DNA of 64,000 nucleotides from Minisyncoccota bacterium. Its GTDB lineage: Bacteria; Patescibacteriota; Minisyncoccia; Phycocordibacterales; Phycocordibacteraceae. Made by a program: the position numbers and the translations under genes. Each line of letters starts with the position of its first letter. Position 1 is the first letter of the stretch. Of the stretch, positions 3,222 through 20,437 are shown in pieces. The notes under the pieces are model-generated. The model saw only the letters and a list, made by a program, of their open reading frames with translations. It made no database searches and had not been told where the DNA came from. The stretch is taken from the NCBI GenBank assembly GCA_017991635.1, contig JAGOQE010000001.1, positions 131,965 through 195,964 on the forward strand, given 5' to 3'.

Positions 3222-4061
3222 GTGTGTTCTACAAATTACTCTAAAATGCAAAGTAAAAAATATTTACAGAATATGTTCTCTAACGGGTTGAAGCCAAAGA
3301 AATCATTGGGTCAAAACTTTTTAATGCACGCACAGACGGCGTCTCGTATTGTTCATGTTGCAGAAATTTCAAGTGAGACAACGGTACTAGAAATTGGTCC
3401 AGGGACAGGAATGCTTACTCGCGAACTTTTAAAGTCTGCCGGGAAAGTAATAGCTGTTGAGGCTGATTTTTCTCTACGCGAAAAACTTGAAGAAACTTTC
3501 GCTGAAGATATTACCTCTGAAAGACTTTCCCTTTTCTTTCAAGACATACGTTCATTTGATACGGAGACTCTCCCAAAAGAGTATGTCTTGGTCGCAAATA
3601 TTCCATATTACATAACTGGCGAAATTATTCGCATGTTTCTAACCGCTCCAAACCCACCCAAAAGCATGACTCTGCTCGTGCAGAAGGAGGTAGCTGTCCG
3701 TATTGCTCGAAGTGAAAAGGAGAGCCTGCTTTCACTTTCCGTAAAAATATTTGGAACTCCACACTATCGCTTTACCGTTCCTTCAGGTGCCTTTATTCCA
3801 CGCCCTAAGGTTGATTCAGCAGTACTGTCTATTACAGATATCAGCAATCCATTTGAAAATAGGGAAGAGGAAGCGCTCTTCTTTGAGCTTCTCCGTGCTG
3901 GATTTGCGCATAAGCGAAAAATGCTTCGTTCTAACCTGGAAAGCCTGTATAAACGAGAGCTGATTCTTGATGCATTTACTTCAGAAAATCTCTCACCGCA
4001 AGTTCGACCAGAGGAACTGAGTCTTTCAGATTGGGTGAAACTCTTTAAGAAACTTTCCTAG
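3222..4061 (+). CDS. rsmA: 16S rRNA (adenine1518/1519-N6)-dimethyltransferase RsmA/KsgA
   Basis: LGQNFL motif, SAM site VLEIGPGTGMLT, VIAVEAD, ANIPYYITGEII. Confidence 0.85.
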   Translation: MCSTNYSKMQSKKYLQNMFSNGLKPKKSLGQNFLMHAQTASRIVHVAEISSETTVLEIGPGTGMLTRELLKSAGKVIAVEADFSLREKLEETFAEDITSERLSLFFQDIRSFDTETLPKEYVLVANIPYYITGEIIRMFLTAPNPPKSMTLLVQKEVAVRIARSEKESLLSLSVKIFGTPHYRFTVPSGAFIPRPKVDSAVLSITDISNPFENREEEALFFELLRAGFAHKRKMLRSNLESLYKRELILDAFTSENLSPQVRPEELSLSDWVKLFKKLS

Positions 4062-4086: not shown

Positions 4087-5121
4087 TTGCGCATTTTTGC
4101 GTGCTACTATCATCTATATATGATGGCTATTGTCCCTCCGTCTATGCGCTCTCTAAGTATTATTGGCTCAACGTTTCTTGCATTGGTGCTTATAGGAAGT
4201 GCGTATGTGCTTTCTGGTCCAAATCCCTTCAAACTTTTCACCGCAAATGCTGGGGGCACTGAAGAGCTCCTTACCTCACTCGCTAAGAAAGATGCGGACG
4301 GCGACGGCCTGCCTGACTGGCAAGAATCTCTTTACGGTACAGACCCGCAAAACCCAAACTCTGTGAAGGCCGGAATGACTGATCTTCAGGCAGTTTCAGA
4401 AGGTCTCGTGAAGCCTCGCTTTGAATCAGAGGTTACTGTTGGTGAGAGCACGGTACCCGGAACTACTGCAGGACCAAAAACTATTACTGACGAATTTGCT
4501 CGTGCACTCTTTGGCACCTATCTTAAGAACCGTGGTGCTACACAGCCCACCCCTGAAGAAATCGCCACCTTTACGCAAAACGCGGTGACGGCTCTTGCAG
4601 AACGTGAGGCAAAAATGACCGCGTACACCGAAAAAGACCTAGTAACAGGGACTTCTGGATATGAAGGTTTTAGAGCATATGCTTCTGGAGTAGATATCGC
4701 GATGGCTAAAAATGCCGTAAAGATTGAGAAGAGTAACATCGAGTATTTTGCAGATGGCGCAAATAAAGATGATGCAACAGCTCTCAAAAAGGTGAGCGAA
4801 ATTGCTGTTGGATACACCAACACTGCAAAAGCACTTACAAAGGTTGCAGTTCCGCCTGAGGGGAAGGCAGCTCACCTGCGCCTAGTAAACGCCCTTCACC
4901 GCATGGGCCTCGTGTCTGAACACCTTGCCTCTCTTCAAACCGACCCTCTTCGCGCAATGCTTGGTGTTGCTGAGCACGAAGACGCATCGCGTGAAATTGT
5001 CTCGGCAATGGCCGGTCTTAACAGCTTATTTGTTGCGCAAGGCATTTCTTTTGCGCCTGAAGAATCTGGCTACTATATAGTTCGCGCGGCTGATTCAGCC
5101 TCTAAGGTAGAGCTTCGATAA
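4087..5121 (+). CDS. Hypothetical membrane-anchored protein (first gene of T4SS-like operon); thrombospondin type-3-like Ca-binding motif
   Basis: N-terminal TM (IIGSTFLALVLIGSAYVL). DADGDGLPDWQE motif. Tightly packed with downstream + strand genes. Likely start at internal M near 4120. Confidence 0.4.
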   Translation: MRIFACYYHLYMMAIVPPSMRSLSIIGSTFLALVLIGSAYVLSGPNPFKLFTANAGGTEELLTSLAKKDADGDGLPDWQESLYGTDPQNPNSVKAGMTDLQAVSEGLVKPRFESEVTVGESTVPGTTAGPKTITDEFARALFGTYLKNRGATQPTPEEIATFTQNAVTALAEREAKMTAYTEKDLVTGTSGYEGFRAYASGVDIAMAKNAVKIEKSNIEYFADGANKDDATALKKVSEIAVGYTNTAKALTKVAVPPEGKAAHLRLVNALHRMGLVSEHLASLQTDPLRAMLGVAEHEDASREIVSAMAGLNSLFVAQGISFAPEESGYYIVRAADSASKVELR

Positions 5122-5125
5122 CACT

Positions 5126-6661
5126 ATGCCTATGACTACAAAAAAAATCCTTGCCTCACTCGTCTTTGGAGCAATGCTCGTTGTGTCTGCAGGAACTCCA
5201 CAGAAAGCAGAGGCATTTCTTGGATTTGGTGACATCGTACTCGACCCTGCAAACCTAGTTCAGACAATTATCAATGTATATCAAGAAGGGGAGGGTATAT
5301 ACAAAGAGTTTGTCCTCGATCCACTTGCGTGGGTGGTTGGAAAACAGGCCGCACAATCAGTCGTCAAAAGTGTTATTACGTGGGCTGGAAATGGTTTTGA
5401 TGGAGAACCTTCATTCGTCACCGATCTCAATTCAAATATGCTTCGTGTCGGAGACACTGTAGCTGAAGATTTTCTAAAGCAGTACATGGAGAATAATGCT
5501 GTAAATTCCCCATACCGCGACAGTATTGCAAGCTCAATTAGAAGTGATTACTACCGCTCAACTGGACCAGGTGCGTTTTTTAACTCAAACAAATATGACT
5601 TGGACCAATACTCAGAAGATCCTGCAGCTTTCACAAGTGGAGATTTTACGAAGGGTGGATGGACAGCATGGTGGGCTATTAACTCTAACCCTCAAAACAA
5701 TCCGAGAGGAGCGTATATAACGGCGCAAGGTGCCCTTGATTCTTCAGTACAGAACGCTCAAAACAATCGCTCTGAAGAGCTTGATTGGGGAAGTGGCTTT
5801 CTTGCATATCGAGGAAACTGTAACTCGTCAGGCACAGGTGGCACAGCTTCAGCACCTGAAAAGAAGACCTTTGCTGACTTCTACGCAGCACTTGGGGACC
5901 AGTACCCAAATGAAGAAGCTGCACGAAATGCTTTTGAAAACCTTGCTGCATTAGGACCGTCGGATTCTTCTGGTAGTGGCAATGCGGTTTCTCTTTCCGG
6001 AAATTATGACTGTCTCTTGAACAGCACCATTCAAACTCAAGGAGCCACCATTAAGGCAAGTGTCGACAAGGCACTTGGAAGCGGGATTGACCAGCTCGTA
6101 AGTGCTGACGAGTTTAATGAAATTGTCGGTTCGCTCTTTTCTTCTCTCATTAGTAGCGTTATGGATGAGGGTCTTTCAAATGTAAGCAAGCCTTCTTCAA
6201 GTGGTAGAAGTACGCTTGGAGACGCAACTGACCCAGGCCAGCTATCAGGTTCAAGTCTTGGCACTAGTTTTGCTAAAACAATTGATAATCAGAAGAAGCA
6301 AGTTGAAGGATACAAGGAAGACTGGGAAGCAATTAATAAAGCAGCACTTGAAACAAAGGCGGCTTGCGGTAGCAGAAATACTGATGCTGATGCGATTATC
6401 CAACAGTCTACACAAGAAATTGCACGTGCAGTTGAAGCGCTCGCCGAGCTCGATAAACTTAAAGCCAAGACGAGCTCAACGTCATCATCTGATCTTACCA
6501 GTCTGGCAGGAGAGTTTGATGCTCTTCAGAAATCAGGAACACTTCCTTCTCCAGAGGAAATCGCTGAAGCACGCCTAAACGCAATGGATAATAGTGGTGG
6601 AGATTCTATGGTGTCACAAATGAAAGAAGCGAAAAATTCTTGCCTCGTGAGAGGTTTTTAG
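5126..6661 (+). CDS. Hypothetical secreted protein with C-terminal coiled-coil (T4SS-like operon member)
   Basis: Sec-type signal peptide (MPMTTKKILASLVFGAMLVVSAGTPQKAEA). Ser/Gly/Asn-rich middle. C-terminal heptad-like region. No recognisable catalytic motif. Confidence 0.4.
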   Translation: MPMTTKKILASLVFGAMLVVSAGTPQKAEAFLGFGDIVLDPANLVQTIINVYQEGEGIYKEFVLDPLAWVVGKQAAQSVVKSVITWAGNGFDGEPSFVTDLNSNMLRVGDTVAEDFLKQYMENNAVNSPYRDSIASSIRSDYYRSTGPGAFFNSNKYDLDQYSEDPAAFTSGDFTKGGWTAWWAINSNPQNNPRGAYITAQGALDSSVQNAQNNRSEELDWGSGFLAYRGNCNSSGTGGTASAPEKKTFADFYAALGDQYPNEEAARNAFENLAALGPSDSSGSGNAVSLSGNYDCLLNSTIQTQGATIKASVDKALGSGIDQLVSADEFNEIVGSLFSSLISSVMDEGLSNVSKPSSSGRSTLGDATDPGQLSGSSLGTSFAKTIDNQKKQVEGYKEDWEAINKAALETKAACGSRNTDADAIIQQSTQEIARAVEALAELDKLKAKTSSTSSSDLTSLAGEFDALQKSGTLPSPEEIAEARLNAMDNSGGDSMVSQMKEAKNSCLVRGF

Positions 6662-6664
6662 CGC

Positions 6665-8812
6665 ATGAGTCTATTCTTTAAAAGAGTTTTCAACAGCACT
6701 CAGGGGCAAGCTTCGCTTGTTTCCCGAGTTGCTATACGCAGTGCTTCCTTTGCCCCGACCCTGCTTTTACTCTTTGTTCTTTTTGGTCTAGCAGTTCCTC
6801 ATGAGGTTCATGCTGCTGCGACATGGAATCCTCTGACCTGGCCTGGCGCCATTTTGTCAGGAGTCGCTAAGGAGTTTGCTGAGGGGGCAGGGAAGCTGTT
6901 TGCGTCCTTTTTGTTTGTGCTTGTTCAACTTATGGCCGGACTCCTTTTTGTCGTTGGCATGGGACTTAACTGGGTGGTTTTAGTAACTGTTTTTCAGTTT
7001 TCAACGTACTTTGGAAATTCTTCAGGCATGCTTCTGGCATGGACAACGCTTCGTGACCTCGCAAACATTATTCTTCTTTTTGGTTTTGTATGGATTGGTT
7101 TGCAAACGATACTCAATGTCGGACACCACTTTAGTGTAGGAAAGGCGCTTCCTCGACTTCTTATCTTTGCAATTCTTATCAACTTTAGTCTTTTTATATC
7201 TGAAGCAATTGTTGATGTTGCGAATGTATTCACGGCGGTCATGTATGAACAGGCTGGAAGCATCGACTGCAAGCAGGCAGTTAATCAGGTTGATTGCGTA
7301 AATATAGGTATTTCTGGAAACGTTATTGGCGCAATTGGATTTGGAAGTCTCTTTGAGCCTGGCGCTTTTGACGCATATAAAGAGATCTGGAACAGCAGCA
7401 CTGACCCAGGACAGGCAATCTTGGCAGGGTTCCTCTCTCTAATATTCATGATTGTACTGGTAACTGTTTTTCTTGCGGCCTCCATTATGTTACTTATTCG
7501 TTCCATTGTGCTCATTTTTGTACTAGTGCTTTCGCCTTTAGGTTTTGTTGGGATGGCAGTGCCGCAGTTTGAAGAACAGGCACAAAAGTGGTGGAAGATG
7601 CTTATATCTAACGCTTTCTTTGCTCCAGTACTATTTCTTCTTTTGTTTATTTCACTAAAAATAATGGAGGGCGCTAAGGCTACTTTTGGACAAGGGGTTT
7701 CATTTGCTGCCGCAGTAATGTCACCCGGAGTAAATATGGGTGGAATTTTAATTCTTTTTGGATTAATGATTGGCTTTATTATCTTTTCACTTATTGCCGC
7801 GAAGAGTATGGGCGCGTTCGGAGCTGATTTTGCAACAAACACAGCAGGAAAAATGACTGGAGCAATGACTCTTGGAGCTGGCGGATTTGTGGCGAGGAGA
7901 ACTGTTGGTAGAGCTGCGAATTGGGCCGAACGTAAGGTTCGAGACTCACAATTCTCAGATACAGAGTGGGGTAGAAGAACAGCGAGTGTCCTTAACAAAG
8001 GAGCTACAGCAAGCTTCGATTTACGCGGTTCTAATATGGTCAAATCAGCAGCCAAGGCAGGGAACCTTGATTTTGGTGCCGTAAGCAAGGGCGGTTCTCA
8101 TGGGTATCACGGTATAGAAGAGGCTGGAGTTAAGGTGAGAACCGATTACGCAAAAACTCTAAAAGGAAGGACTGAGACTCAAGAAGAGTTTGAAACTCGC
8201 AAGAACAGCTTGAAGGAAACCGCTGACAAAGCAGAGGAGGCGCTCATTCCCGCTCAGGAGTTTGCCGCTAATGCTGAGCGTGATGTTGAAACAAAGCAGC
8301 AAGAACTTGCTGACCTTAGATCTCAAGTTGCACGAACACCCAATAATCCAGTTCTTCAGAATAAACTTATTCAAGTGGAGCAAGAACTGACTCAAAGACA
8401 AGCTGAGAATGTTAAAGCACAAAAGGGACTTTCTGACGCAACAACCGCTCTCACTGAGGCAAGGAAGGCCGAAACTGAGGCAACAAAAGGAAGGATCACA
8501 GCAAAGCAACAACAGGAAAAGTACGCGGACATGCTTCACGACAAAGCAACAGGGGCTCTTCCTGGTGGTGTCGTTCGCTACCCAGGAGGCAGACCAAGCA
8601 CAGGGAGAGGTGTTGGTGTCACGCTCGGGGAGCATGTTTTCCACAATGCGTCAGAAGCCATTAAAAAGGAGGCTAACAAGAGCGACAATGACCGCCTAAA
8701 GGACACGATTGACGCGCTCGCAAAGAAGACGGAAAAACTCGACACCTCAGTTAAGAGTGCGGGTTCTGGTGGTGGTGATTCACATGGTGGTGGCGGCGGT
8801 GACCATCATTAG
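6665..8812 (+). CDS. VirB6/TrbL-like polytopic inner-membrane protein with long C-terminal coiled-coil and Gly/His-rich tail
   Basis: At least 6 hydrophobic helices in residues 1-400, typical of VirB6/TrbL channel proteins. Located beside VirB3/VirB4 homologues. C-terminal 250 aa Lys/Glu/Gln-rich coiled-coil ending GSGGGDSHGGGGGDHH. Confidence 0.45.
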   Translation: MSLFFKRVFNSTQGQASLVSRVAIRSASFAPTLLLLFVLFGLAVPHEVHAAATWNPLTWPGAILSGVAKEFAEGAGKLFASFLFVLVQLMAGLLFVVGMGLNWVVLVTVFQFSTYFGNSSGMLLAWTTLRDLANIILLFGFVWIGLQTILNVGHHFSVGKALPRLLIFAILINFSLFISEAIVDVANVFTAVMYEQAGSIDCKQAVNQVDCVNIGISGNVIGAIGFGSLFEPGAFDAYKEIWNSSTDPGQAILAGFLSLIFMIVLVTVFLAASIMLLIRSIVLIFVLVLSPLGFVGMAVPQFEEQAQKWWKMLISNAFFAPVLFLLLFISLKIMEGAKATFGQGVSFAAAVMSPGVNMGGILILFGLMIGFIIFSLIAAKSMGAFGADFATNTAGKMTGAMTLGAGGFVARRTVGRAANWAERKVRDSQFSDTEWGRRTASVLNKGATASFDLRGSNMVKSAAKAGNLDFGAVSKGGSHGYHGIEEAGVKVRTDYAKTLKGRTETQEEFETRKNSLKETADKAEEALIPAQEFAANAERDVETKQQELADLRSQVARTPNNPVLQNKLIQVEQELTQRQAENVKAQKGLSDATTALTEARKAETEATKGRITAKQQQEKYADMLHDKATGALPGGVVRYPGGRPSTGRGVGVTLGEHVFHNASEAIKKEANKSDNDRLKDTIDALAKKTEKLDTSVKSAGSGGGDSHGGGGGDHH

Positions 8813-8827
8813 TAGTACACTGTATTC

Positions 8828-9643
8828 ATGGATGATGAGACTGAGCAAATGCCCTTAGAGGATGCTGTTGAAGTGCTCATGGAGAGACTTCCTGTCCCTG
8901 TACAGAACTTTCTCACAAGCGAGCGCAGGAATCAGGTTATATATGAAATAAGCCAGAAGTACCGTCTACACACAGACCAGGCAGGGGACTTTGAGCGCGC
9001 TGCGCTCTTTATGCTCCTTGGTATTTATTCTCCTGAAGAGTTCCTTACAAATCTTAAGGCAGCGGGCATTCCAGAGCAGGTGGCGCAAGGGCTTACCCGC
9101 GAAGTTAACGAGAAAATATTTATACCTCTTCGCGAAGAAGAGCGCGCACTCACCGATACGGAGTCCGCACCAAAACTCAAAGAAGAGACAACTCCTGCCT
9201 ACACAGCACCGGTGATCGCGACACCACCACAACCAGATAGGGCAACCACTTTAATGCCAGAACAGACGCCAGCATGGAGCCCTCAGCAATATCCAACATC
9301 TCCTCAGTTTCAACAGCCGTTCTACGGTGGACAGGCACAGACATACTGGATTCCTGTCTCCATTTCACCTATTCAACACCCCATGAGTCCATTTCCTCAG
9401 TATGGCGGGACTCCTTATACGCAAGCACCGCAGGCACCCGCTCAAGAGATGCAAGCACCACCTCCTCTATTTCCCGCAACACCTCAACCAGAGGCAATGC
9501 GATATACTGAACCTAGCCAACCTCAAACATTAGAACCTATGCAAGACGCTTCCTCTCGCCCCGAGTCTCCAGTCACCCAAACACCTCCGCCACCCATCAA
9601 GAGGGAATACAACGGCGACCCATATAGAGAAGTTCCGTTATAG
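8828..9643 (+). CDS. Hypothetical cytoplasmic protein with Pro/Gln-rich low-complexity C-terminal half
   Basis: No TM segment. C-terminal PQ-rich segment. In T4SS-like operon. Confidence 0.35.
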   Translation: MDDETEQMPLEDAVEVLMERLPVPVQNFLTSERRNQVIYEISQKYRLHTDQAGDFERAALFMLLGIYSPEEFLTNLKAAGIPEQVAQGLTREVNEKIFIPLREEERALTDTESAPKLKEETTPAYTAPVIATPPQPDRATTLMPEQTPAWSPQQYPTSPQFQQPFYGGQAQTYWIPVSISPIQHPMSPFPQYGGTPYTQAPQAPAQEMQAPPPLFPATPQPEAMRYTEPSQPQTLEPMQDASSRPESPVTQTPPPPIKREYNGDPYREVPL

Positions 9644-9698
9644 CTTTTAAACGTTTTTTGTACTCGTTTATTGTTGTTCGTTGCTATACTACTAAGTA

Positions 9699-10106
9699 AT
9701 GGAGTATCAAGTTCCTCAATTTATAGAAGTTGAAGACAAGGTCTTTGGACCGCTTTCAATTAAACAGTTCATTTACTTGGCTGGAGGAGCAGGCCTTTGT
9801 GTTGTGCTCGCGCTGTACGTACCTAAGGTTGGAATTATCTTAGCCATACCTGTCGGCTTATTTGCTGCAGGTCTAGCGTTTTACAGAATCAATAACAAGC
9901 CTTTGGTTGATATACTTGAGTCTGCATTTACATTCTTTCTAGGCGGAAGACTCTATTTGTGGAAAAAAGAAGACCATATAGCAAGTCCTGAGAAACCTAA
10001 GGCTGTTGCACCTACTCCAACTGAACGTGAGCAAATGGGTCTTACGCGAGGCAAATTACATGACTTGGCGTGGTCACTCGACATAAAGGACACTTCTTCG
10101 AAATAA
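9699..10106 (+). CDS. PrgI-family (VirB3-like) small membrane protein
   Basis: N-terminus MEYQVPQFIEVEDKVFGPLSIKQFIYLAGGAG matches characteristic PrgI family start (xxYxVPxxIxxEDKIxGxLTxRQFxYL). Two TM segments. Sits immediately upstream of VirB4 as in Gram-positive T4SS loci. Confidence 0.6.
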   Translation: MEYQVPQFIEVEDKVFGPLSIKQFIYLAGGAGLCVVLALYVPKVGIILAIPVGLFAAGLAFYRINNKPLVDILESAFTFFLGGRLYLWKKEDHIASPEKPKAVAPTPTEREQMGLTRGKLHDLAWSLDIKDTSSK

Positions 10107-10109
10107 CAT

Positions 10110-10751
10110 ATGGCGATACCTAAGGCGACACAATCGTTTGTACCAGTAAAAGAAATCCGAAACGGGGTAATTATCCTTAAAGATGGTGGCTATCGTGGAA
10201 TACTTATGTGTTCTTCGGTAAATTTCTCACTTAAGTCAGAGGATGAACAGCGGGGAATCATTGGAGGATTTCAGAATTTTCTCAATACACTTGATTTCTC
10301 TGTAGAGATTGTCATCCAGTCACGAAAGATGGATATTCGACCCTACCTAGCGCTCCTTGAAGAGCGTATGCAGGCACAGACAAGCGAGCTGATGCGAATT
10401 CAGTTGCGTGAATACATTGGCTTCATTAAAAGTTTTGTTGAGGGAACGGATATTATGACAAAGACATTCTATGTCGTGGTGCCGTTTGCACCAGCTCCTG
10501 TAAGCACTGTTTCCGGCGCCCTACCGTTCCTTCAGAAAAAAGACACGACCATCGCTGAAGCAGGGGAGTCCGATGAGGACAAATTGTTTACAGAGTTTCG
10601 AATTCAACTTGAGCAACGCATGGCCCTTGTTGGTTCGTCACTCGCTTCTTCTGGAGTGCGGGCGGTGCCTCTTGGAACTGAAGAGATTATTGAACTTTTG
10701 TATCGTTCATTTAATCCAGGAGAGAACGAGAACCCTATCCGACTTTCATAA
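10110..10751 (+). CDS. VirB4/TraE-family ATPase, N-terminal domain (separated from the ATPase domain by an in-frame TAA)
   Basis: VPVKEIRNGVIILKDGGYRGILMCSSVNFSLKSEDEQ ... FLNTLDFSVEIVIQSRKMDIRPYL resembles the conserved N-terminus of Gram-positive VirB4 homologues. Same reading frame as 10758-12572. Confidence 0.6.
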   Translation: MAIPKATQSFVPVKEIRNGVIILKDGGYRGILMCSSVNFSLKSEDEQRGIIGGFQNFLNTLDFSVEIVIQSRKMDIRPYLALLEERMQAQTSELMRIQLREYIGFIKSFVEGTDIMTKTFYVVVPFAPAPVSTVSGALPFLQKKDTTIAEAGESDEDKLFTEFRIQLEQRMALVGSSLASSGVRAVPLGTEEIIELLYRSFNPGENENPIRLS

Positions 10752-10757
10752 TTTACT

Positions 10758-12572
10758 ATGGCACTACTCGACTTTTTCGGAAAAAAGAATGACGCTCCTG
10801 AGGTGACTCCTGTCTTACCTAAAGACATTTACGCAGCTGGTGAACTTGATCTTGCAGATACTATTGCACCTGCTGCACTCAAGGTTAATTCAAAAGACAT
10901 TGAAATTGGTGAGCGCTTTGCTCGTACGCTCTACACAATTTCATATCCTCGCTTCCTTGTTGATAGTTGGTTCTCTCCGATTATTAATTTGGATAAACAG
11001 TTTGATATCGGCCTTTTCATCCACCCGCTTGAAACAGGGGCGGCTCTTAAAGGTTTTCAGAAAAAGGTTGCTGAAGTACAAAGCCAAATTGCTGAGCGAG
11101 AAGAGAAGGGGTTTGTCCGTGACCCAATGCTTGATACGGCATACCGTGACCTTGAGGACCTCCGTGATCAATTACAACAGGCGCAAGAACATCTTTTTGA
11201 AGTTGGACTATACACGACTATTTATGGAAACACTAAGGACGAACTCGATAAGGCTGAATCAAAGATACGTGGCATTCTTGATGCAAAGCTTGTGTATTCA
11301 AAACCAGCGCTTTACCGACAGGAGCAAGGTTTTCGCTCTACACTACCGCTCGCCCTTGATGAATTGAATGACCACACTAAACTAAATTCTTCTCCTCTCT
11401 CTTCACTCTTTCCGTTTGTCTCTTTCGACCTCACCAGTGATAGAGGGATTCTGTATGGCATCAATCGTCACAACGCCTCACTCATTCTTTTTGATAGATT
11501 CTCTCTAGAAAACTACAACTCTGTAGTATTCGCAAAATCAGGCTCCGGAAAATCATATGCGATTAAACTCGAGATTCTACGCTCATTGATGTTTGATACT
11601 GACGTCATTGTTATTGACCCTGAACGGGAGTACGAATACCTTGCTCAAGCAACTGGGGGTAGACTCTTTAACATCTCACTTTCTTCTGAGCACCACATTA
11701 ACCCCTTTGATTTGCCAGTAGTCAAAGATGACGAGGACCCTTCAGACATTCTTCGAAATAACATCATTACACTTGTTGGTCTCTTCCGTATCATGCTCGG
11801 AGGGCTTACGCCTGAAGAGGACGCAATTGTTGATCGCGCAATTACCGAGACTTACGCCCTCAAGGACATCACTGGCGACCGGGACTTTACCGGAATGGAA
11901 CCGCCTCTTCTTTCTGATTTTGAGAGTGTACTTTCTGGTATGGAGGGAAGTGAGTCGCTCGTACAACGTCTTTCCAAGTACACGCACGGCACCTGGTCAG
12001 GATTCATCAATCAGCCAACCAATATCGATATTAATAAACAGTTCATTGTGTTTTCAGTGCGAGACATGGAGGACGAGCTTAAACCTGTTGCTATGTACAT
12101 CGTCACGCATTACATATGGAATGCGGTTCGAAAAGAGCTCCGTAAGCGTCTTCTTATTATTGATGAGGCGTGGTGGATGATGAAGTCTGAAGATACTGCT
12201 TCATTCCTCTACTCTCTCGCAAAGCGTGGACGTAAATACTACTTAGGCGTCTCCACCATTACGCAGGACGTGGAAGATTTCTTGCGCTCTCCGTATGGCC
12301 GTCCAATTCTCACAAACTCATCAATGCAACTGCTTCTTAAACAGTCGCCAACAACTATCGACACACTGCAACAAACGTTCAACCTCACTGATGAGGAAAA
12401 ATATCTCTTGCTTGAGTCTGGAGTAGGGGAGGGGCTCTTTTTCGCGGGCCTAAAGCACGTAGCAATTAAAATTGTGGCCTCCTACACTGAGGATCAAATT
12501 ATTACCTCTGACCCTTCTCAACTTCTTGCCATTCAACAAGAGCGCTTGCGCCTCAATAGCGAAGGCGCGTAG
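10758..12572 (+). CDS. VirB4/TraC/TrbE-family T4SS ATPase, central + C-terminal ATPase domain
   Basis: Walker A VVFAKSGSGKSYAIK, Walker B LLIIDEAWWMM. Upstream VirB4 middle-domain similarity (FARTLYTISYPRF...). Combined with 10110-10751 gives an ~817 aa VirB4. Confidence 0.85.
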   Translation: MALLDFFGKKNDAPEVTPVLPKDIYAAGELDLADTIAPAALKVNSKDIEIGERFARTLYTISYPRFLVDSWFSPIINLDKQFDIGLFIHPLETGAALKGFQKKVAEVQSQIAEREEKGFVRDPMLDTAYRDLEDLRDQLQQAQEHLFEVGLYTTIYGNTKDELDKAESKIRGILDAKLVYSKPALYRQEQGFRSTLPLALDELNDHTKLNSSPLSSLFPFVSFDLTSDRGILYGINRHNASLILFDRFSLENYNSVVFAKSGSGKSYAIKLEILRSLMFDTDVIVIDPEREYEYLAQATGGRLFNISLSSEHHINPFDLPVVKDDEDPSDILRNNIITLVGLFRIMLGGLTPEEDAIVDRAITETYALKDITGDRDFTGMEPPLLSDFESVLSGMEGSESLVQRLSKYTHGTWSGFINQPTNIDINKQFIVFSVRDMEDELKPVAMYIVTHYIWNAVRKELRKRLLIIDEAWWMMKSEDTASFLYSLAKRGRKYYLGVSTITQDVEDFLRSPYGRPILTNSSMQLLLKQSPTTIDTLQQTFNLTDEEKYLLLESGVGEGLFFAGLKHVAIKIVASYTEDQIITSDPSQLLAIQQERLRLNSEGA

Positions 12573-12595
12573 AAGAATGAGGTACTATAGTACCA

Positions 12596-13261
12596 ATGCC
12601 TCCTCAAGAGACACCTGAAAAGAAACCACGTATAGGGTTATTGACTGCACTTGCTCTTGTGCTTGTAGCTTTAATTTTTGATGGCGGACAATTTCTTGTT
12701 GGTCTAATACCATTTCTTGATATTGTGCTTCTTCCTATTGTGGGAATAACGGCATCAATCGTTTTTTGGATTTGGTTTATGTTGATTGACCCAAGCCTTA
12801 TGTCTGGAGCAAAGGCATTTAAAAATCAGCTTGCTATGGCAGGGATGTCGATTGCGACAGTTATCCCTTTCCTTGATATGTTGCCTGAAATTACAGCGGG
12901 CGTGGTTGCGGTTATTCTCATATCTCGTGCCGAGGACATGGGTCTTTCGGTCAGTGACCTGATTAAAACCGGTTTAAATATCGCAAAGAATCCAGTACTT
13001 GGTACTGCTGAGGCAGTGGTGAGCGCCAAATCTAAAGAAAGAGAGAAAAAGGGTGGTGGAGGTGTTGGAAGTTTTATGGCAAACAGAGTAGGAGGAGACC
13101 GAAAGGCCGTTGGGAAACCTCTACCACAAGATGGAGTAAGAAGAGCCAAAGGATATGCCGGTCCAACTATTAATAAGGAGCCCACAACCTCAAAACAGAC
13201 TCCTTTGGTAAGTGGTGGAAAACCCTCACCGCTAGTATCAGAGGCTAATCGCTGGCGATAA
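12596..13261 (+). CDS. Hypothetical polytopic membrane protein with Gly-rich disordered C-terminal tail (T4SS-like operon)
   Basis: 3-4 hydrophobic helices in first 120 aa, then KEREKKGGGGVGS tail. Confidence 0.35.
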   Translation: MPPQETPEKKPRIGLLTALALVLVALIFDGGQFLVGLIPFLDIVLLPIVGITASIVFWIWFMLIDPSLMSGAKAFKNQLAMAGMSIATVIPFLDMLPEITAGVVAVILISRAEDMGLSVSDLIKTGLNIAKNPVLGTAEAVVSAKSKEREKKGGGGVGSFMANRVGGDRKAVGKPLPQDGVRRAKGYAGPTINKEPTTSKQTPLVSGGKPSPLVSEANRWR

Positions 13262-13287
13262 GTTAACCTCTGGATTTCAATAAAAAT

Positions 13288-14298
13288 GTGGCGAGAAGGG
13301 CGTATACTAAATGCATGATACGAGGTTTTTATACGTTGTTTTTTGTCGCATTGTTTTTCGTTCCGCTGACTACTTTTGCGCAGGGCTATAACCCTCAGGA
13401 TTCTCTTTCGGTAAGTATTGTTCCGGAACACCCAAAACCTTATGAGACTGTTTCTGTTACCCCAAGGAGTTCACTCCTTGACCTTATATCAAGTACGATA
13501 ACGATTTCAGCAAACGGGCAAAAGGTTGAGCAGGGGAGCGGTTTGGTTACTGGGTATGTTCGAGCAGGCGCTCCAGGAGAAAAAACCACCATTACTGTTT
13601 CAGTTGTATCGGGAGGAACTACGTACACAAAAACGGTAGTAATTCGGCCAGCAAGTGTGGCGCTCGTCGTAGAACCAACATCAACAACACATCCCTTTTA
13701 CCTTGGTGGAAGCCTGGTGGCATCTGAAGGGCCGGTTCGTCTTGTTGCTATTCCCGATTTCCAAAGTACGCCTGGTGTTTCCATAAAGAACGAGCAGCTC
13801 ACCTATACGTGGAGATTAGGCCAACAGGTCTTACAAACTGTTTCTGGAATTGGAAAGAGTTCAGTCACAGCAACAGCTCCAGTTCGTTACAGAGATGCAA
13901 CACTGTCAGTTACGGTGACAAATTCAGAAAACACCATGGTGGCCTATGCTTCAACAAGCATCGCTCCTACCGATCCATTAATAAAGGTGTACGCGAATGA
14001 TCCTCTCCTAGGCCCTCTTTTTGATCATGCACTTCCAAACTCACTCACCATGGAAACGACTGAGCAAACCTTCAGAATGGTTCCGTATTTCTTTGCCACG
14101 ACACCAAGCATGTCATGGAACGTGAACGGGAGTACAGGAGGAGTAGAGAGAGATGTCACAGTGCGAGCAACAGGGAATGGAAAAGGGTCTGCGGTTATAG
14201 AAGCTTCTGCCAAGCTCGCCGAAACATTCCAAAACGCGAAGACTTCATTGAGCGTATCATTTGGTGAACAGTCTGGTCTTGGTATATTTGGACTATAG
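13288..14298 (+). CDS. Hypothetical secreted beta-rich protein (T4SS-like operon)
   Basis: Signal peptide ...FFVPLTTFAQG. Thr/Ser/Val-rich repeats suggest Ig-like beta-sandwich domains. Confidence 0.35.
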   Translation: MARRAYTKCMIRGFYTLFFVALFFVPLTTFAQGYNPQDSLSVSIVPEHPKPYETVSVTPRSSLLDLISSTITISANGQKVEQGSGLVTGYVRAGAPGEKTTITVSVVSGGTTYTKTVVIRPASVALVVEPTSTTHPFYLGGSLVASEGPVRLVAIPDFQSTPGVSIKNEQLTYTWRLGQQVLQTVSGIGKSSVTATAPVRYRDATLSVTVTNSENTMVAYASTSIAPTDPLIKVYANDPLLGPLFDHALPNSLTMETTEQTFRMVPYFFATTPSMSWNVNGSTGGVERDVTVRATGNGKGSAVIEASAKLAETFQNAKTSLSVSFGEQSGLGIFGL

Positions 14299-14300
14299 CT

Positions 14301-15218
14301 ATGAAACGAACACTTTTCTTTATTGGAAGTCTCGCACTACTAACTCCGGCACTGGTCTTTGCACAAGACACCACCTTTGTTCCATTAACTAACCTTCCTG
14401 GAATTAGTGGTGTTTCCGGGTCTCCCGACCTGACCTCAATCCTTAACAATATCTACCGCATATGTATTGGTGCTGCTGCGGTTATCGCAGTCTTTCAAAT
14501 TATGCGTGCGGGTGTGCTGTTCATGTTCAACAAGGGCAGTATTTCTGAGAATCAAGAAGCTAAGCAGTTAGTACAGATGTCGATTTTAGGGCTTATTTTG
14601 GTACTTTCGCCAGTAATCATTTTTAGTATCATTAATCCTAAGATTCTTGAGTTGAATTTTGGTGTTGATCAACTTAAGACAAACTTTACTGGTGGTGTTT
14701 CTGGAACAGGGACAGCGCCAACCGCTCCTGGCACAGGCACTAATGATGGGGCAGTGGTTCCACCCCCTTCAATCATTCCAGCGACAGGAGCCACAAACAC
14801 AGGCTGCCCTGTAATTGCAGACAATCAAATTTTGACAGAGCCTGACCTGTACCAGAAACAGCAATGCTGCGCGAATCAGACAAATGACATGGTTACCTGT
14901 AGTGCGCAAGCTCAAACTCGCCAAGGTAATACGGTGGACTATTGCGGGTGTGCGATAAACGAAAAGACAATTACGTTCCATGATGCGTACGAGAATACAA
15001 ACGGCGCACGTAATAGAATTGGTTCTGTCCCCCCTGAGAAGGCAACTGTAGATGCATTTGTAGGGAAGTGTACTCAATATGGCGGGAGGATGGATTACAA
15101 GGATGTGTGGGAAGGATTTGGAGACAAATTTAGGGTCTGCCCCTCAACAATTGTTGTACCTGAAGGAAAAAATTATGACTGCGTTCTTGTAGAGGCAACC
15201 TGTAAGGATGACGACTAA
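14301..15218 (+). CDS. Candidate T4SS pilin-like (VirB2/TrbC-like topology) protein fused to a Cys-rich C-terminal domain
   Basis: Sec signal (ALVFA|QD), then two hydrophobic helices separated by a short polar loop (IYRICIGAAAVIAVFQIMRAGVLFMF / LVQMSILGLILVLSPVIIFSIINP), as in VirB2/TrbC pilins. Followed by ~170 aa with about 10 Cys. Confidence 0.3.
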   Translation: MKRTLFFIGSLALLTPALVFAQDTTFVPLTNLPGISGVSGSPDLTSILNNIYRICIGAAAVIAVFQIMRAGVLFMFNKGSISENQEAKQLVQMSILGLILVLSPVIIFSIINPKILELNFGVDQLKTNFTGGVSGTGTAPTAPGTGTNDGAVVPPPSIIPATGATNTGCPVIADNQILTEPDLYQKQQCCANQTNDMVTCSAQAQTRQGNTVDYCGCAINEKTITFHDAYENTNGARNRIGSVPPEKATVDAFVGKCTQYGGRMDYKDVWEGFGDKFRVCPSTIVVPEGKNYDCVLVEATCKDDD

Positions 15219-15221
15219 CCT

Positions 15222-16433
15222 ATGCAAAGAATATTCCTTATCGTAGCAAGTATTATTTTCGTCGCCGGTATTGGTATTGGTGTGTACTTCTTTTTTTTCC
15301 AAGACAAAGCAACACTCTCTGTTGATACAGGAAATACGTTCGGAACTTCTGGAGACACCACCACAACGACTGAAGAAGACGATACTGGACCTCTATTGGT
15401 TGGAGCTGGTGAAGAGGTGTTACCTCAACTTTTCAAGATTACTGATAAACCTATATCATCTGGCATTGTTGCTCTTTCCATCCCTCCAACGCTCACCGCA
15501 TCAAGTACCGGCGTAAATCGAGGAGATGTTGAGGTTCGCTACGTTGACAGAACAAGTGGAAATATCTATGCATATAGAGCGTACGAGCGAACTTTAACGC
15601 GCACCTCAAATAGGACCGTTCCAGGAATACAGGAGGTATCATGGCTTCCAAATGGCGAGACCGCTCTTGTTCGCTTTCTTTCAACAGATAGTTCCACGAA
15701 TACCGAAGCAGTCGAAACGTATGTACTACCTGCAACAGGGGAGGGTGGCTTCTTCCTTGAGCGAGGGCTTTCGCAAGTGCTTGGCGTTGGTTCTTCAACA
15801 CTCTTTACTCTCAAGACAAGCTCATTTGGCTCAACAGGCACTGTAGCGAATAGTAAAGGCGAAGTGGTGAGAACTGCGTTTACTTCAACACTCTCTTCAC
15901 TTCGTGTTTTTGCTACCTCAAAGGGGTATACAGCACAGACGAAAGCGTCGTCATCGCTTGATGGGTACGCGTTTTCTATTAGCACAACAGGAGCGCTCTC
16001 AAGAATACTTGGCCCACATAAAGGCTTGTCCATCCTACCGAACGCTGATGGTACGCTTGTGCTGTATTCATACCAGTCGGAAGGGTCCATGCGTATGGCG
16101 TTACTCAACCGAAATTCAGGCGATGTGACCGCCCTTCCGCTTTCTACACTTGCTGAGAAGTGCACATGGTCTGGAGACGAGAAATCAATCTATTGCGGAG
16201 TTCCTCAAAGCGCGAAAGGGAATCTTCCCGACGAATGGTATCAAGGTGCGCGTTTCTTTACCGATAGGATTTGGAAAATTGACCTCTCTGATCGTGTCGC
16301 GACACTACTCCTAGACCCTTCAAAAGCAGAGGGTGTGGCTATTGATATGGTAAGTGTGTCTATTGATAAGTCTTCTGACTTCCTCTTCTTCAAAAACAAG
16401 CAGGACGGCTCCCTCTGGGCGTACGATATTTAA
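15222..16433 (+). CDS. Hypothetical membrane-anchored beta-rich (possibly beta-propeller/TolB-like) protein; last gene of T4SS-like operon
   Basis: N-terminal TM (IFLIVASIIFVAGIGIGVYFFFF). Ser/Thr-rich beta strands. Motifs such as SLWAYDI, WSGDEKSIYCG. Confidence 0.3.
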   Translation: MQRIFLIVASIIFVAGIGIGVYFFFFQDKATLSVDTGNTFGTSGDTTTTTEEDDTGPLLVGAGEEVLPQLFKITDKPISSGIVALSIPPTLTASSTGVNRGDVEVRYVDRTSGNIYAYRAYERTLTRTSNRTVPGIQEVSWLPNGETALVRFLSTDSSTNTEAVETYVLPATGEGGFFLERGLSQVLGVGSSTLFTLKTSSFGSTGTVANSKGEVVRTAFTSTLSSLRVFATSKGYTAQTKASSSLDGYAFSISTTGALSRILGPHKGLSILPNADGTLVLYSYQSEGSMRMALLNRNSGDVTALPLSTLAEKCTWSGDEKSIYCGVPQSAKGNLPDEWYQGARFFTDRIWKIDLSDRVATLLLDPSKAEGVAIDMVSVSIDKSSDFLFFKNKQDGSLWAYDI

Positions 16434-17173
16434 ACTTTTACTGGCGTTCCGCGCAGGTTCTTTTTTCTAACGATAAATTCTTGAAGGATACCAACAAGGT
16501 TGCTGGTTATAAGATAAAGAGCAATTGCGCCTGAAGCATAAGCGACAACAGCAATCACAACAGGGAGGATGTACCGAGCCTGAATTGCGAGCGCTCTACC
16601 AAACTCTGCCTGCATTGATTCTGGTGTACTTGCGGTCTTTTCACTTTTAGGAGGAACGGGAATGGCGTAATGAGCCTGTATAAGTTGCGTTACGCCCGCA
16701 AGTAAGGCAAGTACTAGATGATGCCCTGAAATTAAAAATATACCGAACAATAGTGGTGAAAACGTGCCCGGGTCCTGAATAAATGAATACAAAATCTCTG
16801 GGTTTACCTTATCGAGGGGTTCCTTTTGAAATACAAGGAAGAGGGAGATGACAATAGGAATTTGTATGAACATCATTAAAATGCTCGAAAACGGCTTAAT
16901 TCCGTACTCTTTATATAGAGCGAACATTTCCTTGGCTTGTTTTTCCTTATCATCTTTGTACTTCTCCTTCAACTCTTTGAGGAGAGGTTCTATTTCCTTC
17001 ATCGCGCGCTGTGTTTTGAGTGCAGAAAATGAAAGAGGCATAGTTACTACCTTTACCACAAGGGTAACCATAATAACTGCAAGACCTACATCAGCGCCCG
17101 GAAGTACGCCCACTAAATAAATGAGAAAATTGTAAATCGGAACGTATAGATATTCGTGAAAGAAGGCGAGCAT
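16430..17173 (-). CDS. yidC: Membrane protein insertase YidC (short, Gram-positive/Oxa1-like form)
   Basis: Multi-TM. Conserved loop KTQRAMKEIEPLLKELKEKYKDDKEKQAKEMFALYKEYGIKPF. Classic position downstream of rnpA. Confidence 0.85.
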   Translation of the reverse strand: MLAFFHEYLYVPIYNFLIYLVGVLPGADVGLAVIMVTLVVKVVTMPLSFSALKTQRAMKEIEPLLKELKEKYKDDKEKQAKEMFALYKEYGIKPFSSILMMFIQIPIVISLFLVFQKEPLDKVNPEILYSFIQDPGTFSPLLFGIFLISGHHLVLALLAGVTQLIQAHYAIPVPPKSEKTASTPESMQAEFGRALAIQARYILPVVIAVVAYASGAIALYLITSNLVGILQEFIVRKKNLRGTPVKV

Positions 17174-17176
17174 GTC

Positions 17177-17518
17177 TTATACCTTACCAGAGAAAAGGCC
17201 TGTTTGGGTAATAAGTGATTTTAATTCCATAGATAATTCTTCATAAGAAAGAGTGGGGGAGTGTTGTCCTGCATACACAATGAGTGTTTTGTCCTCGGCG
17301 CAAAACTCTTTAAGCACGGTACGGACTCTTCGTTTGAGAAGATGTCTGCCTACTGAACTTTTTTCCACTTTCTTAGAAACTACGACGGCACACCCGCCAG
17401 AGCCTGGTGTTTGACCGAAGGTAAGAGAAAAATGCGGACTTGAAATCCGCTTTAAGTTTCTCTTGTCCGCCAAGTTCTCAAAATCGCTTCTAGAGAGCCT
17501 GAGGTGACGGGGAATCAT
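17177..17518 (-). CDS. rnpA: Ribonuclease P protein component
   Basis: 113 aa basic protein, LKRRVRTVLKE motif, between rpmH and yidC. Confidence 0.8.
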   Translation of the reverse strand: MIPRHLRLSRSDFENLADKRNLKRISSPHFSLTFGQTPGSGGCAVVVSKKVEKSSVGRHLLKRRVRTVLKEFCAEDKTLIVYAGQHSPTLSYEELSMELKSLITQTGLFSGKV

Positions 17519-17521
17519 GGC

Positions 17522-17665
17522 TTACACCGAGGTTGAAAGCTTTGCACGCCCTTTTCGTCTACGACGAGCAAGGACTCTCTTTCCTGAAGAGGTCGCGGTA
17601 CGAGCACGAAAACCGTGAGTCTTCGCGCGCTTTCGCTTTTTTGGTTGGTAGGTGCGCTTAGGCAT
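17522..17665 (-). CDS. rpmH: 50S ribosomal protein L34
   Basis: [50 protein letters not shown] track entry 17522-17758 is an artificial N-terminal extension; true ATG at 17665. Confidence 0.9.
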
Positions 17666-17756
17666 TTGTAGAGAGGATAGTATCAGGGTAGGGGACAAAA
17701 GGCAAGGAAATCCAAGGGTTTCCCTAAATGCCTTCTGGCGTATAAAATAGCGAGAC

Positions 17757-19106
17757 ATGAATCGCTTAGATCCGCATGAACTTTGGGAGTACGTGCTAAC
17801 GCAGGTCGAGCTTTCTATTTCTCCCGCAAACTTTAATACGTGGTTTAGGGATAGTCAGATAGTCAAAATTGAAGACGGTATCGTATACATTGGTGTGCCG
17901 AGCCAATTCTTCCGAGATTGGTACCTGAAGAAATTCCACACTCTTCTCCTTAAGATAATCCGAGGTGTTTCGTATGAGTATAGAAACATTGAGTACCAAA
18001 TAGTTAAAGATATTGCGCGTAAACCAAAAGATACCCGCCACAAGGTTCAGCCAACCGTGGAGATGCCCCTTGATGATTTCTATGTAAATAAGAGTGATGG
18101 CTTGAATCCTCGCTATACGTTCGATACCTTTGTGGTTGGTTCCTTTAATGAACTTGCCCACACCGCAGCTCAAGCAGCGCTCAAGAGGCCGGGAATTATG
18201 TACAATCCTCTCTTTATCTACGGAGACACAGGAAGAGGGAAGACACACCTTATCCAAGCTATTGGAAATCACTTTAAGAAACTCTATCCAACCAGAAAGG
18301 TGTATTACCTAACTGCTGAAACATTTGCTCAGGACTACACAAATTCTATTCAAAATGGCTCTACAAACCGTTTTAAGGAGAAATACCGTCAATACGATCT
18401 TGTAATCATGGATGATATTCAGTTTTTCTCTAAAAAGGAGAAAACTCAGGAAGAACTATTCCATCTTTTTAACGCGCTGTACGACAATAATAAGCAAATT
18501 ATCTTCTCATCTGATCGTTCTCCAAGCTCAATACCTGACATTGCTGATAGGTTGCGGGGTAGATTTGCGAGCGGTATGACTATTGATATCGGAGAACCTG
18601 ATACCGAATCCCGTATAGCAATTGTACGCAAAAAGGCTGCAAGTCATGGAGTAACACTCTCCGATGATGTTGCTGAATTCGTGGCGACGAATGTCACTGG
18701 CTCAATTAGAGAACTTGAGGGCGTTATCAACTCAATTGTGTGCCATACACAAGTAAAAGGGGTTCCGCCAGACATTGCTGAGGTGCGCCAATCTCTTCGT
18801 TCCTTCTCTAGACCAACAAAAACTGTGTCTGTTAAACACGTGGTGAGTAAAATCGCTGAATACTACGGAATTGATGAGGAAAGCATCTATGAAAAGACTC
18901 GTAGGAGGGAGGTGGTGCGCCCGCGTCAGGTCATTATGTATATTCTTCGAGAAGACTTTAGTGTTTCGTACCCAACAATAGGCACAAAACTAGGAGGGAG
19001 AGACCATACCACAGTAATTCACTCTTGTGAGAAGGTTAAACGAGAGGTTCAAACCGATACTGAACTCTCCAAAGAAATCCAAGAGATTCGCTCATTGTTG
19101 GTATAG
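17757..19106 (+). CDS. dnaA: Chromosomal replication initiator DnaA
   Basis: AAA+ Walker [17 protein letters not shown], Walker [11 protein letters not shown]-terminal DNA-binding helix ([36 protein letters not shown]). Confidence 0.9.
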
Positions 19107-20432: not shown

Positions 20433-20437
20433 GGTTC

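Follow-up and report, generated by a model that had tools for sequence, protein, structure and literature searches.

A Paceibacteria type IV secretion operon next to dnaA: an ordinary member of a published system, with folds and motifs newly described for its accessory proteins

The type IV secretion systems (T4SSs) of the Patescibacteria, or candidate phyla radiation (CPR), have been surveyed by Quinonero-Coronel et al. (2025; PMC12102498), who found VirB4 in 2417 of 3035 genomes and placed it in a monophyletic clade nested in the mating-pair formation type FATA (MPF-FATA). TrsD, PrgI/VirB3, VirB6 and VirB2-like pilins are encoded near virB4, a relaxase is present in only about 100 of the 3035 genomes, and homologues of the type IV coupling protein (T4CP) are common and mostly encoded away from virB4. 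The virB4 neighbourhood of the Paceibacteria is rich in dnaA, dnaN, ksgA, rnpA and rpmH. Table S3 of that study gives for one Paceibacteria genome the order VirB6 - unannotated - VirB3 - TrsD - VirB4, and a LysM protein about 10 coding sequences upstream is counted as VirB1. In the Saccharibacteria, transposon sequencing (Tn-seq) revealed that the T4SS, including its pilins, is essential for epibiotic growth, and protein export was suggested (Wang et al. 2023; PMC10633639). A 2025 review (PMC12857230) proposed a pilus conduit, either for signals or for uptake, and a 2026 preprint described tubular structures entering the host and uptake of host RNA. In Paceibacterales enrichment cultures, the T4SS pilins are among the most highly expressed genes of unknown function. 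Here we describe an operon of this kind at positions 4087 to 16433 of a stretch of 64,000 nucleotides from a Minisyncoccota bacterium (GenBank assembly GCA_017991635.1, contig JAGOQE010000001.1, positions 131,965 to 195,964), which is called the window throughout.

With a probability of about 80%, the operon encodes a vertically inherited, chromosomal T4SS of the Paceibacteria, which would belong to a Patescibacteria-specific clade derived from the monoderm MPF-FATA machines and would have lost the link to DNA conjugation. This reading is based on the gene content and order, the conservation, the motifs, the topology and the folds of the proteins. Its most likely function is that of a VirB4-driven pilus or conduit at the host interface. 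An earlier note, made from the letters of the window, had recognised a chromosomal, minimised T4SS of the CPR/Saccharibacteria kind, and the gene set, the synteny and the two published studies (PMC12102498, PMC10633639) all agree with it. The same note had seen the block as the best candidate for an undescribed apparatus, which it is not: the same TrsD-VirB4-PrgI-VirB6-VirB2 set is described in PMC12102498. Descriptions of the system appeared in 2023-2025, which makes the locus an ordinary member, and the details of its accessory proteins are new but incremental. The genes were called as follows.

4087 to 5121, plus strand: g1; its probable true start is the ATG at 4123, because M13 is nearly invariant among the g1 orthologues
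5126 to 6661, plus strand: g2
6665 to 8812, plus strand: g3, VirB6/TrbL-like protein
8828 to 9643, plus strand: g4, DPYRE-tailed protein
9699 to 10106, plus strand: g5, PrgI/VirB3 protein
10110 to 10751, plus strand: g6, TrsD-like protein of 213 aa
10758 to 12572, plus strand: g7, VirB4 ATPase of 604 aa
12596 to 13261, plus strand: g8, small membrane protein
13288 to 14298, plus strand: g9, Ig-like protein; its probable start is the ATG at 13315, because the signal peptide begins there
14301 to 15218, plus strand: g10, VirB2-like pilin module
15222 to 16433, plus strand: g11, anchored β-propeller protein

These are the eleven co-directional open reading frames (ORFs) announced in the earlier note, and their order is kept in most of the related Paceibacteria loci. 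The number is eleven because the VirB4 region is counted as two genes. The spacers had been given as 3-55 nt; the upper bound was confirmed, and the lower one became 2 nt on re-measuring, several pairs of stop and start codons being only 2-6 nt apart. No obvious Shine-Dalgarno motif was seen in the 20 nt upstream of any of the eleven genes, and promoter and terminator scans of the region performed no better than on shuffled sequence.

Compared with the Paceibacteria T4SS of PMC12102498, the locus shows the same order VirB6 - unannotated - VirB3/PrgI - TrsD - VirB4 with a VirB2-like pilin downstream, the same lack of a relaxase or T4CP nearby, the same neighbours (ksgA, rnpA, rpmH, dnaA, dnaN) and, some 10 coding sequences upstream, a LysM protein as VirB1 analogue. 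Nothing substantive differs. The genes g1, g2, g4, g8, g9 and g11 are unannotated there, and the descriptions of folds and motifs given below for g4, g9, g10 and g11 are newly added here.

The region 10110-12572 had been read as a single VirB4 ATPase. The identity as VirB4 was correct; the single gene was not, because an in-frame TAA at 10749-10751 breaks it into g6 and g7. Protein g7 scored 378 bits with the NCBIfam profile conju_CD1110 (cut-off 325) and matched P-loop_TraG at E=4.5e-25; a profile search against the PDB sequences gave 4AG5 at E=1.4e-43 and TrwK at E=3e-8. Both the Walker A (AKSGSGKS) and the Walker B (LLIIDE) motifs are intact in the translation. These matches identify g7 as a predicted VirB4 ATPase core of the monoderm CD1110/MPF-FATA type. 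The best 120 of its thousands of homologues share 83-100% identity with it, measure 603-617 aa (588 aa in one case) and come, where named, from Paceibacterota, Parcubacteria or Patescibacteria. Judged from the identity, length and names of these homologues, g7 is a candidate member of the monophyletic Patescibacteria clade. Protein g6 matched VirB4_plasma of NCBIfam at E=7.3e-9 (profile positions 103-233), positions 2-119 of the conju_CD1110 profile, and TrsD at E=0.0024, which points to a TrsD-like, free-standing homologue of the N-terminal domain of VirB4.

In 77 related loci, the gap between TrsD and VirB4 is mostly 1-6 nt and all three frames are represented. Therefore g6 and g7 are two translationally coupled genes and not the product of readthrough. 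The split is the conserved state, neither a pseudogene nor a defect, and the fact that both genes share one frame in the window is a coincidence. Recoding or readthrough of the in-frame TAA was ruled out by these gaps of variable frame and by the length of the close homologues (about 604-610 aa). Genetic code 25 is irrelevant here since the stop codon is TAA.

The other core components were assigned by profile searches of each ORF with hidden Markov models (HMMs), a check proposed in the earlier note; PrgI and VirB4 were above their cut-offs, and VirB6 and VirB2 were supported via their orthologues. Protein g5 matched PrgI (PF12666) with 36 bits for a cut-off of 27 and has transmembrane (TM)-like segments within aa 19-50, as a small bitopic or hairpin membrane protein; it is thereby assigned as the PrgI-family VirB3 analogue, as already proposed for 9699-10106. 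Protein g3 scored 16.8 bits with TrbL, under the cut-off of 25.9, and 6 of its 36 orthologues matched this family (best E=1.9e-7). It has about seven TM-like segments between aa 26 and 379, followed by a hydrophilic, coiled-coil-like C-terminal tail of about 270 aa which matches coiled-coil proteins only. The assignment of g3 as an extended VirB6/TrbL-like polytopic membrane protein is thus supported mainly through the orthologues and the topology, in agreement at the family level with what had been proposed for 6665-8812.

The pilin candidate g10 reached 23.1 bits with T4SS_pilin (PF18895; cut-off 26.6) and 18 bits with TrbC. Its orthologues matched T4SS_pilin in 40 of 44 cases (best 3e-11), which sustains the earlier proposal of a VirB2-like pilin at 14301-15218, and TrbC in 11. 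The pilin module (aa 1-115) comprises a signal peptide, a FVPL..PG motif and two TM helices. It is followed in the window protein by a C-terminal domain of 190 aa with ten Cys. Among orthologues, the mean pairwise identity is 38% for the pilin module vs 14% for the C-terminal part. A Peptidase_M15/VanY domain at the C-terminus is supported by Pfam in at least two orthologues; LAS-type motifs were seen by eye in those of loci L053, L058 and L071, and possibly L052. In other orthologues the C-terminal domain is unrelated and often Cys-rich. Taken together, and mainly through the orthologues, these data support a VirB2-like T4SS pilin module fused to a hypervariable C-terminal domain. Profile searches of g3 and g10 against PDB sequences returned only coiled-coil or low-complexity noise.

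The remaining six of the eleven proteins have no established role. Five secreted or membrane proteins had been noted as belonging to no recognisable family; this still stands for g1, g2 and g8, and no longer for g9, which is Ig-like, nor for g11, a β-propeller. Signal peptides or anchors are present on g1, g2, g9, g10 and g11. Protein g1 has one TM-like segment (aa 23-41), a TSP3_bac match of 24.8 bits for a cut-off of 25, and a DxDxxxxxDWxE consensus conserved in its orthologues. It is probably an N-terminally anchored extracytoplasmic protein with a TSP3-type Ca-binding repeat followed by a helical domain; its gene is duplicated in some loci, and no relatives were found in PDB or Pfam. Protein g2 is a Sec-exported all-helical protein with a conserved N-domain (WINSGFxGxPxFV) and a C-terminal helical bundle, for which a VirB5/TrbJ-like identity is a weak lead. 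That g1 and g2 are paralogues was ruled out (probability 0.4%). Profiles of g1, g2 and g4 matched only coiled-coil or low-complexity noise among PDB sequences, and the Pfam searches of the orthologue sets of g2, g4 and g8 gave noise only.

As had been stated for the ORF at 8828, g4 is cytoplasmic and rich in Pro and Gln: it has no TM segment, and contains 16% Pro and 10% Gln. A folded N-domain (about 105 aa) leads into a P/Q-rich linker, which is hypervariable, and the protein ends in DPYRE[PQ]xx-COOH, a C-terminal peptide that is invariant. Across the related loci we counted 54 occurrences of DPYRE, nearly all of them in the positional orthologue of g4 (one, in L055, may be unrelated); in all but three of the 54, the motif lies 2-4 residues before the stop. 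The N-domain retrieved 2022 representative clusters at E<=1e-3 from a library of 1.84 billion proteins, and 131 of the top 150 matches carried the DPYRE ending. No relatives of g4 were found in Pfam or PDB, and a literature search for 'DPYRE' returned nothing relevant. We infer from this layout, in which a disordered linker joins the folded domain to the conserved tip, that g4 may act as a tethered docking peptide, and it is a candidate adaptor or tether.

Protein g8 has TM-like segments at aa 13-31, 33-51 and 92-110. In an alignment of 42 positional orthologues, D29, P91 and P97 are conserved (E.IP...LP.WT), followed by a variable basic tail. A second pilin was ruled out for g8 (hhalign probability of 4.5% vs the pilin). 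The profile of g9 matched the Ig-like domains of phage Hoc (3shs) at E=2e-4, a few of its orthologues each match Ig_3, BiPBP_C, Cadherin-like, PKD or Big_2, and a W-containing motif recurs in its consensus at a spacing of about 100 aa; g9 is a Sec-exported protein of about three Ig-like β-sandwich repeats. The confident AF2 model of g11 (pLDDT 90.2) shows an N-terminal TM helix followed by a β-propeller, with seven-bladed propellers of no specific family as the best structural matches, and predicts an N-terminally membrane-anchored, extracytoplasmic β-propeller of the seven-blade type. Two g11 orthologues carry a PG_binding_1 domain. A role of the accessory proteins at the surface or in the wall is supported by the signal peptides and anchors, by these PG_binding_1 domains and by the M15/VanY domains of the pilins. 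No paralogues of the accessory families were found elsewhere in the window.

The conservation of the operon was evaluated in 80 related loci obtained by scanning one genome per species, all of them CPR metagenome-assembled genomes, 40 of which have full flanks. The order UvrD-KsgA-[g1..g11]-YidC(-)-RnpA(-)-DnaA-DnaN recurs in most (about 35) of the 40 full-flank Paceibacteria loci, which come from different species; the synteny comparison suggested in the earlier note thus shows the order to be kept in the majority. Counted after profile iteration among these 40 loci, the families are present as follows.

g5, g6, g7, g9 and g11: 40 of 40 loci
g10: 39 of 40
g3 and g4: 35 of 40
g2: 34 of 40
g1: 33 of 40
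g8: 27 of 40 full loci, and 57 of 80 overall

In the Paceibacteria, the T4SS locus is therefore a fixed unit of eleven genes, more than half of which are uncharacterised. Measured against the window proteins, the median identity amounts to 75% for VirB4 (72-84% over the 80 loci), 55% for TrsD, 46% for PrgI and 26-39% for the remaining families, a pattern that would be expected for a conserved motor with fast-evolving exposed parts.

This variability of the exposed components (26-39% vs 75% for VirB4) can also be taken as a sign of protein export or contact-dependent attack. Effectors, either Sec-exported or cytoplasmic, would be brought to the host, or inside it, in order to breach the wall and to manipulate or kill the host; they would include the variable C-domains of the pilin and possibly g1 or g2, and could leave in two steps as in Bordetella Ptl, or as in the bacteria-killing T4SS of Xanthomonas. 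The pilin orthologues with Peptidase_M15/VanY, and a C-domain as hypervariable as a polymorphic payload, fit this proposal. Most of the characterised non-conjugative T4SSs are protein exporters. Export was suggested by Wang et al. (PMC10633639), and both Ptl and the Brucella VirB system function without a T4CP (PMC12102498). However, no recognisable toxin-immunity pairs, effector signals or chaperones are found in the locus, and no T4CP is linked to it for cytoplasmic substrates. Moreover, the accessory genes occur in single copy and keep their order, a state more in line with structural parts than with an effector arsenal. We consider export of effectors to be unlikely as the main function.

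The gene content of the window was read from all ORFs of at least 150 aa within the 64 kb. The genes that flank the operon are the following.

About 2 to 1042, minus strand: LysM-LysM-M23 cell-wall hydrolase, its C-terminus cut by the window start
1197 to 3200, plus strand: UvrD/PcrA, upstream of the operon and co-directional with it
3222 to 4061, plus strand: KsgA, upstream of the operon and co-directional with it
Downstream of the operon, minus strand: YidC, RnpA and RpmH, read from the ORFs
17757 to 19106: DnaA, downstream of YidC/RnpA/RpmH
19108 to 19351: cluster of DnaA boxes in the dnaA-dnaN spacer, probable oriC, about 2.7 kb past the operon end
19332 to 20432: DnaN, next after DnaA

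No relaxase, T4CP, VirB11 or integrase was found among the window ORFs of at least 150 aa, and no flanking tRNA or repeat signature of an integrated element was detected in the 64 kb; the G+C content is uniform across the window. The remaining ORFs encode housekeeping proteins or type IV pili (PBP1, PilB, PolA, RuvABC, PilM, UppS, ThyA, DHFR, aminoacyl-tRNA synthetases and others). The earlier statement that no relaxase, coupling ATPase or VirB11 lies in or near the operon holds within this scope, and so does its argument against a conjugative element, given the lack of mobility genes, the uniform G+C and the synteny with housekeeping genes. These data bear directly on an integrative conjugative element, or a decaying remnant of one, as the origin of the block. 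Its VirB4, PrgI, TrsD and VirB6 do descend from the conjugation machinery of monoderms (PMC12102498). Against this, none of the marks of such an element was found in the 64 kb (relaxase, T4CP, integrase, flanking tRNA or repeats), the composition is uniform, and the site between ksgA and yidC/dnaA is identical over dozens of species. Decay is also at odds with the intact state of all eleven ORFs and with the very strong conservation of VirB4. Judged from the sequence, the block is not an integrative conjugative element, and this origin, intact or as a remnant, is highly improbable.

The LysM/M23 peptidase was noted earlier as lying upstream on the opposite strand, and it does, as an ORF of 372 codons running off the window start in which LysM-like repeats and a C-terminus of M23 HxxxD/HxH type can be read directly. 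Its linkage to the operon had been called weak. It is somewhat stronger than that, given that the gene is syntenic wherever the flanks extend far enough, upstream of UvrD in L006, L048 and L063, and stands directly beside PrgI in the rearranged locus L054. The hydrolase is thus a candidate VirB1 analogue and a conserved neighbour outside the operon.

Within its 244 bp, the DnaA-box cluster has six TTATCCACA-like boxes, of which two are perfect, and the whole window has 21 vs 13.1 expected. The cumulative GC skew climbs over the whole window and does not change sign at the cluster. With oriC placed at about 19.2 kb, transcription of the T4SS operon would run toward the origin and meet the leftward replication fork head-on, an orientation that is kept in the related loci.

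VirD4 is dispensable for T-pilus biogenesis in Agrobacterium. The ComB system of Helicobacter and the Ced system of the Sulfolobales import DNA with VirB4-type ATPases and no T4CP. With these two and with Bordetella Ptl, the locus shares a VirB4-type ATPase, VirB2/3/6-like membrane parts and the lack of a T4CP and a relaxase. ComB and Ptl differ as diderm systems with a VirB7-10 core complex, while Ced has no VirB2-family pilin and needs separate Ced pili. For all three, the orthology shown here extends to VirB4. Protein g7 matched CedB weakly and partially (E=5e-9, 35 bits for a cut-off of 700). The missing linked T4CP would be compatible with a pilus-biogenesis or conduit machine, with importers such as ComB and Ced, and with the two-step exporter Ptl.

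The monoderm conjugative MPF-FATA systems (pCF10 Prg/Pcf, pIP501 Tra, pGO1 Trs, CTn2 CD4xx) share with the locus the CD1110-type VirB4, PrgI/VirB3, a polytopic protein of VirB6 type and a cell-wall hydrolase as accessory; the TrsD-like N-domain is split off as in pGO1. Here, in contrast, we found neither a relaxase or T4CP nor a recognisable VirB8-like protein (PrgL/TraM) or a PrgB-type adhesin; the locus has a VirB2-like pilin, which the monoderm systems lack, and is chromosomal and vertically inherited.

The T4SS of Southlakia epibionticum ML1 (SEML1_0005-0019; PMC10633639) likewise has a TrsD-like gene of its own upstream of a VirB4 core of about 610 aa. It also encodes PrgI, a VirB6-like protein, PF18895 pilins and an exported Ig-like (PEGA) protein, lies near the origin, and has no relaxase or T4CP in the cluster. 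It differs by an array of six small pilins, where the operon described here has one pilin with a large variable C-domain, and by a protein with three lysozyme-like domains within the cluster, where we find only the LysM/M23 peptidase outside the operon. PrgI is longer in S. epibionticum (300 aa), two proteins of about 1100 aa are encoded in its locus as well, and neither a β-propeller nor a DPYRE protein is reported there.

In one subclade of the related loci (L009, L010, L011, L013, L014, L015 and L017), the g1-g4 half is missing from the site. ComEC lies 2-4 kb upstream of PrgI-TrsD-VirB4 in L009, L010, L011, L013, L014 and L017, and RecJ within a few kb upstream of PrgI in L009, L010, L011, L014 and L015, with RNase H in L009 too. 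In L053, RecJ and ComEC are located just downstream of g11, at 16364-21123. Several ComEC of these loci consist of two ORFs (DUF4131 plus Competence).

A dedicated nucleic-acid import machine like ComB or Ced has to be weighed against this background. In it, a VirB4-driven channel or pilus would bring DNA or RNA, from the host or the environment, up to the envelope or through it, and so feed a cell unable to make nucleotides; the proposal is one particular form of the conduit and overlaps with the best explanation. A set of VirB2, B3, B4 and B6 with envelope proteins, and without T4CP, VirB11 or relaxase, parallels ComB and Ced, the weak CedB match of the ATPase points the same way, and so does the presence of ComEC and RecJ beside PrgI-TrsD-VirB4 in the subclade and just after g11 in L053. 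This adjacency echoes the loci of the ABY1 class, which co-localise with comF, recG and radA (PMC12102498), and the 2026 preprint associates tubular structures with host-RNA uptake. On the other side, no ComEC or RecJ was found in the 64-kb window, and none of the eleven proteins has a recognised DNA- or RNA-binding domain. In S. epibionticum, deletion of comEC ends competence but not growth, the T4SS is essential, and competence depends on type IV pili, the genes of which are present in the window too. Nucleic-acid import as the dedicated function is a tentative proposal, possible and on balance unlikely.

For the pilus or conduit at the host interface that we prefer, the parts could work together as follows. 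A membrane platform would be made of PrgI/VirB3 (g5), extended VirB6 (g3) and g8, the small membrane protein; the split motor, composed of TrsD (g6) and the VirB4 core (g7), would dock on it. The motor would pull the Sec-inserted pilin g10 out of the membrane and polymerise it into a pilus or tube, with the variable C-terminal domains of g10 on its exterior. The parts that span the wall and those at the distal end would come from the exported proteins g1, g2, g9 and g11, and the peptidoglycan would be opened by the LysM/M23 peptidase encoded next to the operon. The tube would then touch or penetrate the host cell of the episymbiont and serve as a conduit. The assembly, the formation of a pilus, the direction of transport and the cargo are what we infer in this scheme. 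By analogy, uptake of host macromolecules is slightly preferred over export of cytoplasmic effectors, because no T4CP or relaxase is linked, because ComB and Ced, importers that lack a T4CP, have a similar gene set, and because ComEC and RecJ lie near PrgI-TrsD-VirB4 in a sister subclade and downstream of g11 in L053.

Several points weigh against this reading as a whole. The window proteins g10 and g3 themselves score under the Pfam cut-offs, and with a C-terminal domain as large as 190 aa attached, the pilin may be unable to pack as in a canonical VirB2 filament. A VirB8-like protein, usual in monoderm T4SSs, was not recognised in the Pfam, NCBIfam and PDB-sequence searches, g9 being Ig-like and g11 a propeller; for g1, g2, g4 and g8, the search for the VirB8 fold (NTF2) covers the sequence level. 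To our knowledge, there is no experiment on, or structure of, any Paceibacteria T4SS. T4CP homologues encoded elsewhere in such genomes (PMC12102498) could serve the system, the negative result in the window covering 64 kb. Finally, comEC is dispensable for growth and the T4SS essential in S. epibionticum; therefore the essential function in that species is something other than DNA uptake via ComEC.

The unannotated half of the operon might, jointly, constitute a CPR-specific and T4CP-independent solution, made of an adaptor or substrate (g4) and a polymorphic pilus decorated with enzymes. The DPYRE tip may dock on TrsD, VirB4 or PrgI, with g4 as a substrate-recruiting adaptor or as a translocated substrate, the hypervariable pilin C-domains (M15 peptidases in some species) may coat a wall-breaching feeding tube, and the β-propeller g11 and the Ig-repeat protein g9 may hold this tube in the wall of the parasite. 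We regard this combination as quite unlikely; if true, a polymorphic, enzyme-decorated T4SS pilus would have no described counterpart.

The Patescibacteria T4SS is among the few lineage-wide and apparently essential machines of a group that holds a large share of bacterial diversity. The locus brings no new kind of system; it offers handles for experiments in the few cultured representatives, namely the g11 propeller, the g9 Ig repeats, the g4 DPYRE motif, the variable C-domain of g10 and the ComEC/RecJ adjacency.

Some other genes of the window deserve a brief description. Type IV pilus genes are scattered at 25410-27341 (minus strand), 35856-38025 (plus strand) and 42269-42760 (plus strand), and comprise a PilB-like T2SSE ATPase with MshEN, PilM followed by two small ORFs, PilN/O-like judging from their position, and an N_methyl prepilin. 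An ORF of 338 aa (30720-31736, minus strand) gave a weak Lamin Tail Domain match of 26.8 bits, under the cut-off, and no other family. The isoleucyl-tRNA synthetase (57995-61456, plus strand, 1153 aa) carries an unusual insertion at aa 502-655, a His_Phos_1 (histidine phosphatase/PGM-like) domain that falls between two parts of the tRNA-synt_1 catalytic domain. Finally, a protein of 626 aa (62034-63914, plus strand) contains repeated DUF11, NPCBM-associated and PKD-like β-sandwich domains and is probably a surface protein.

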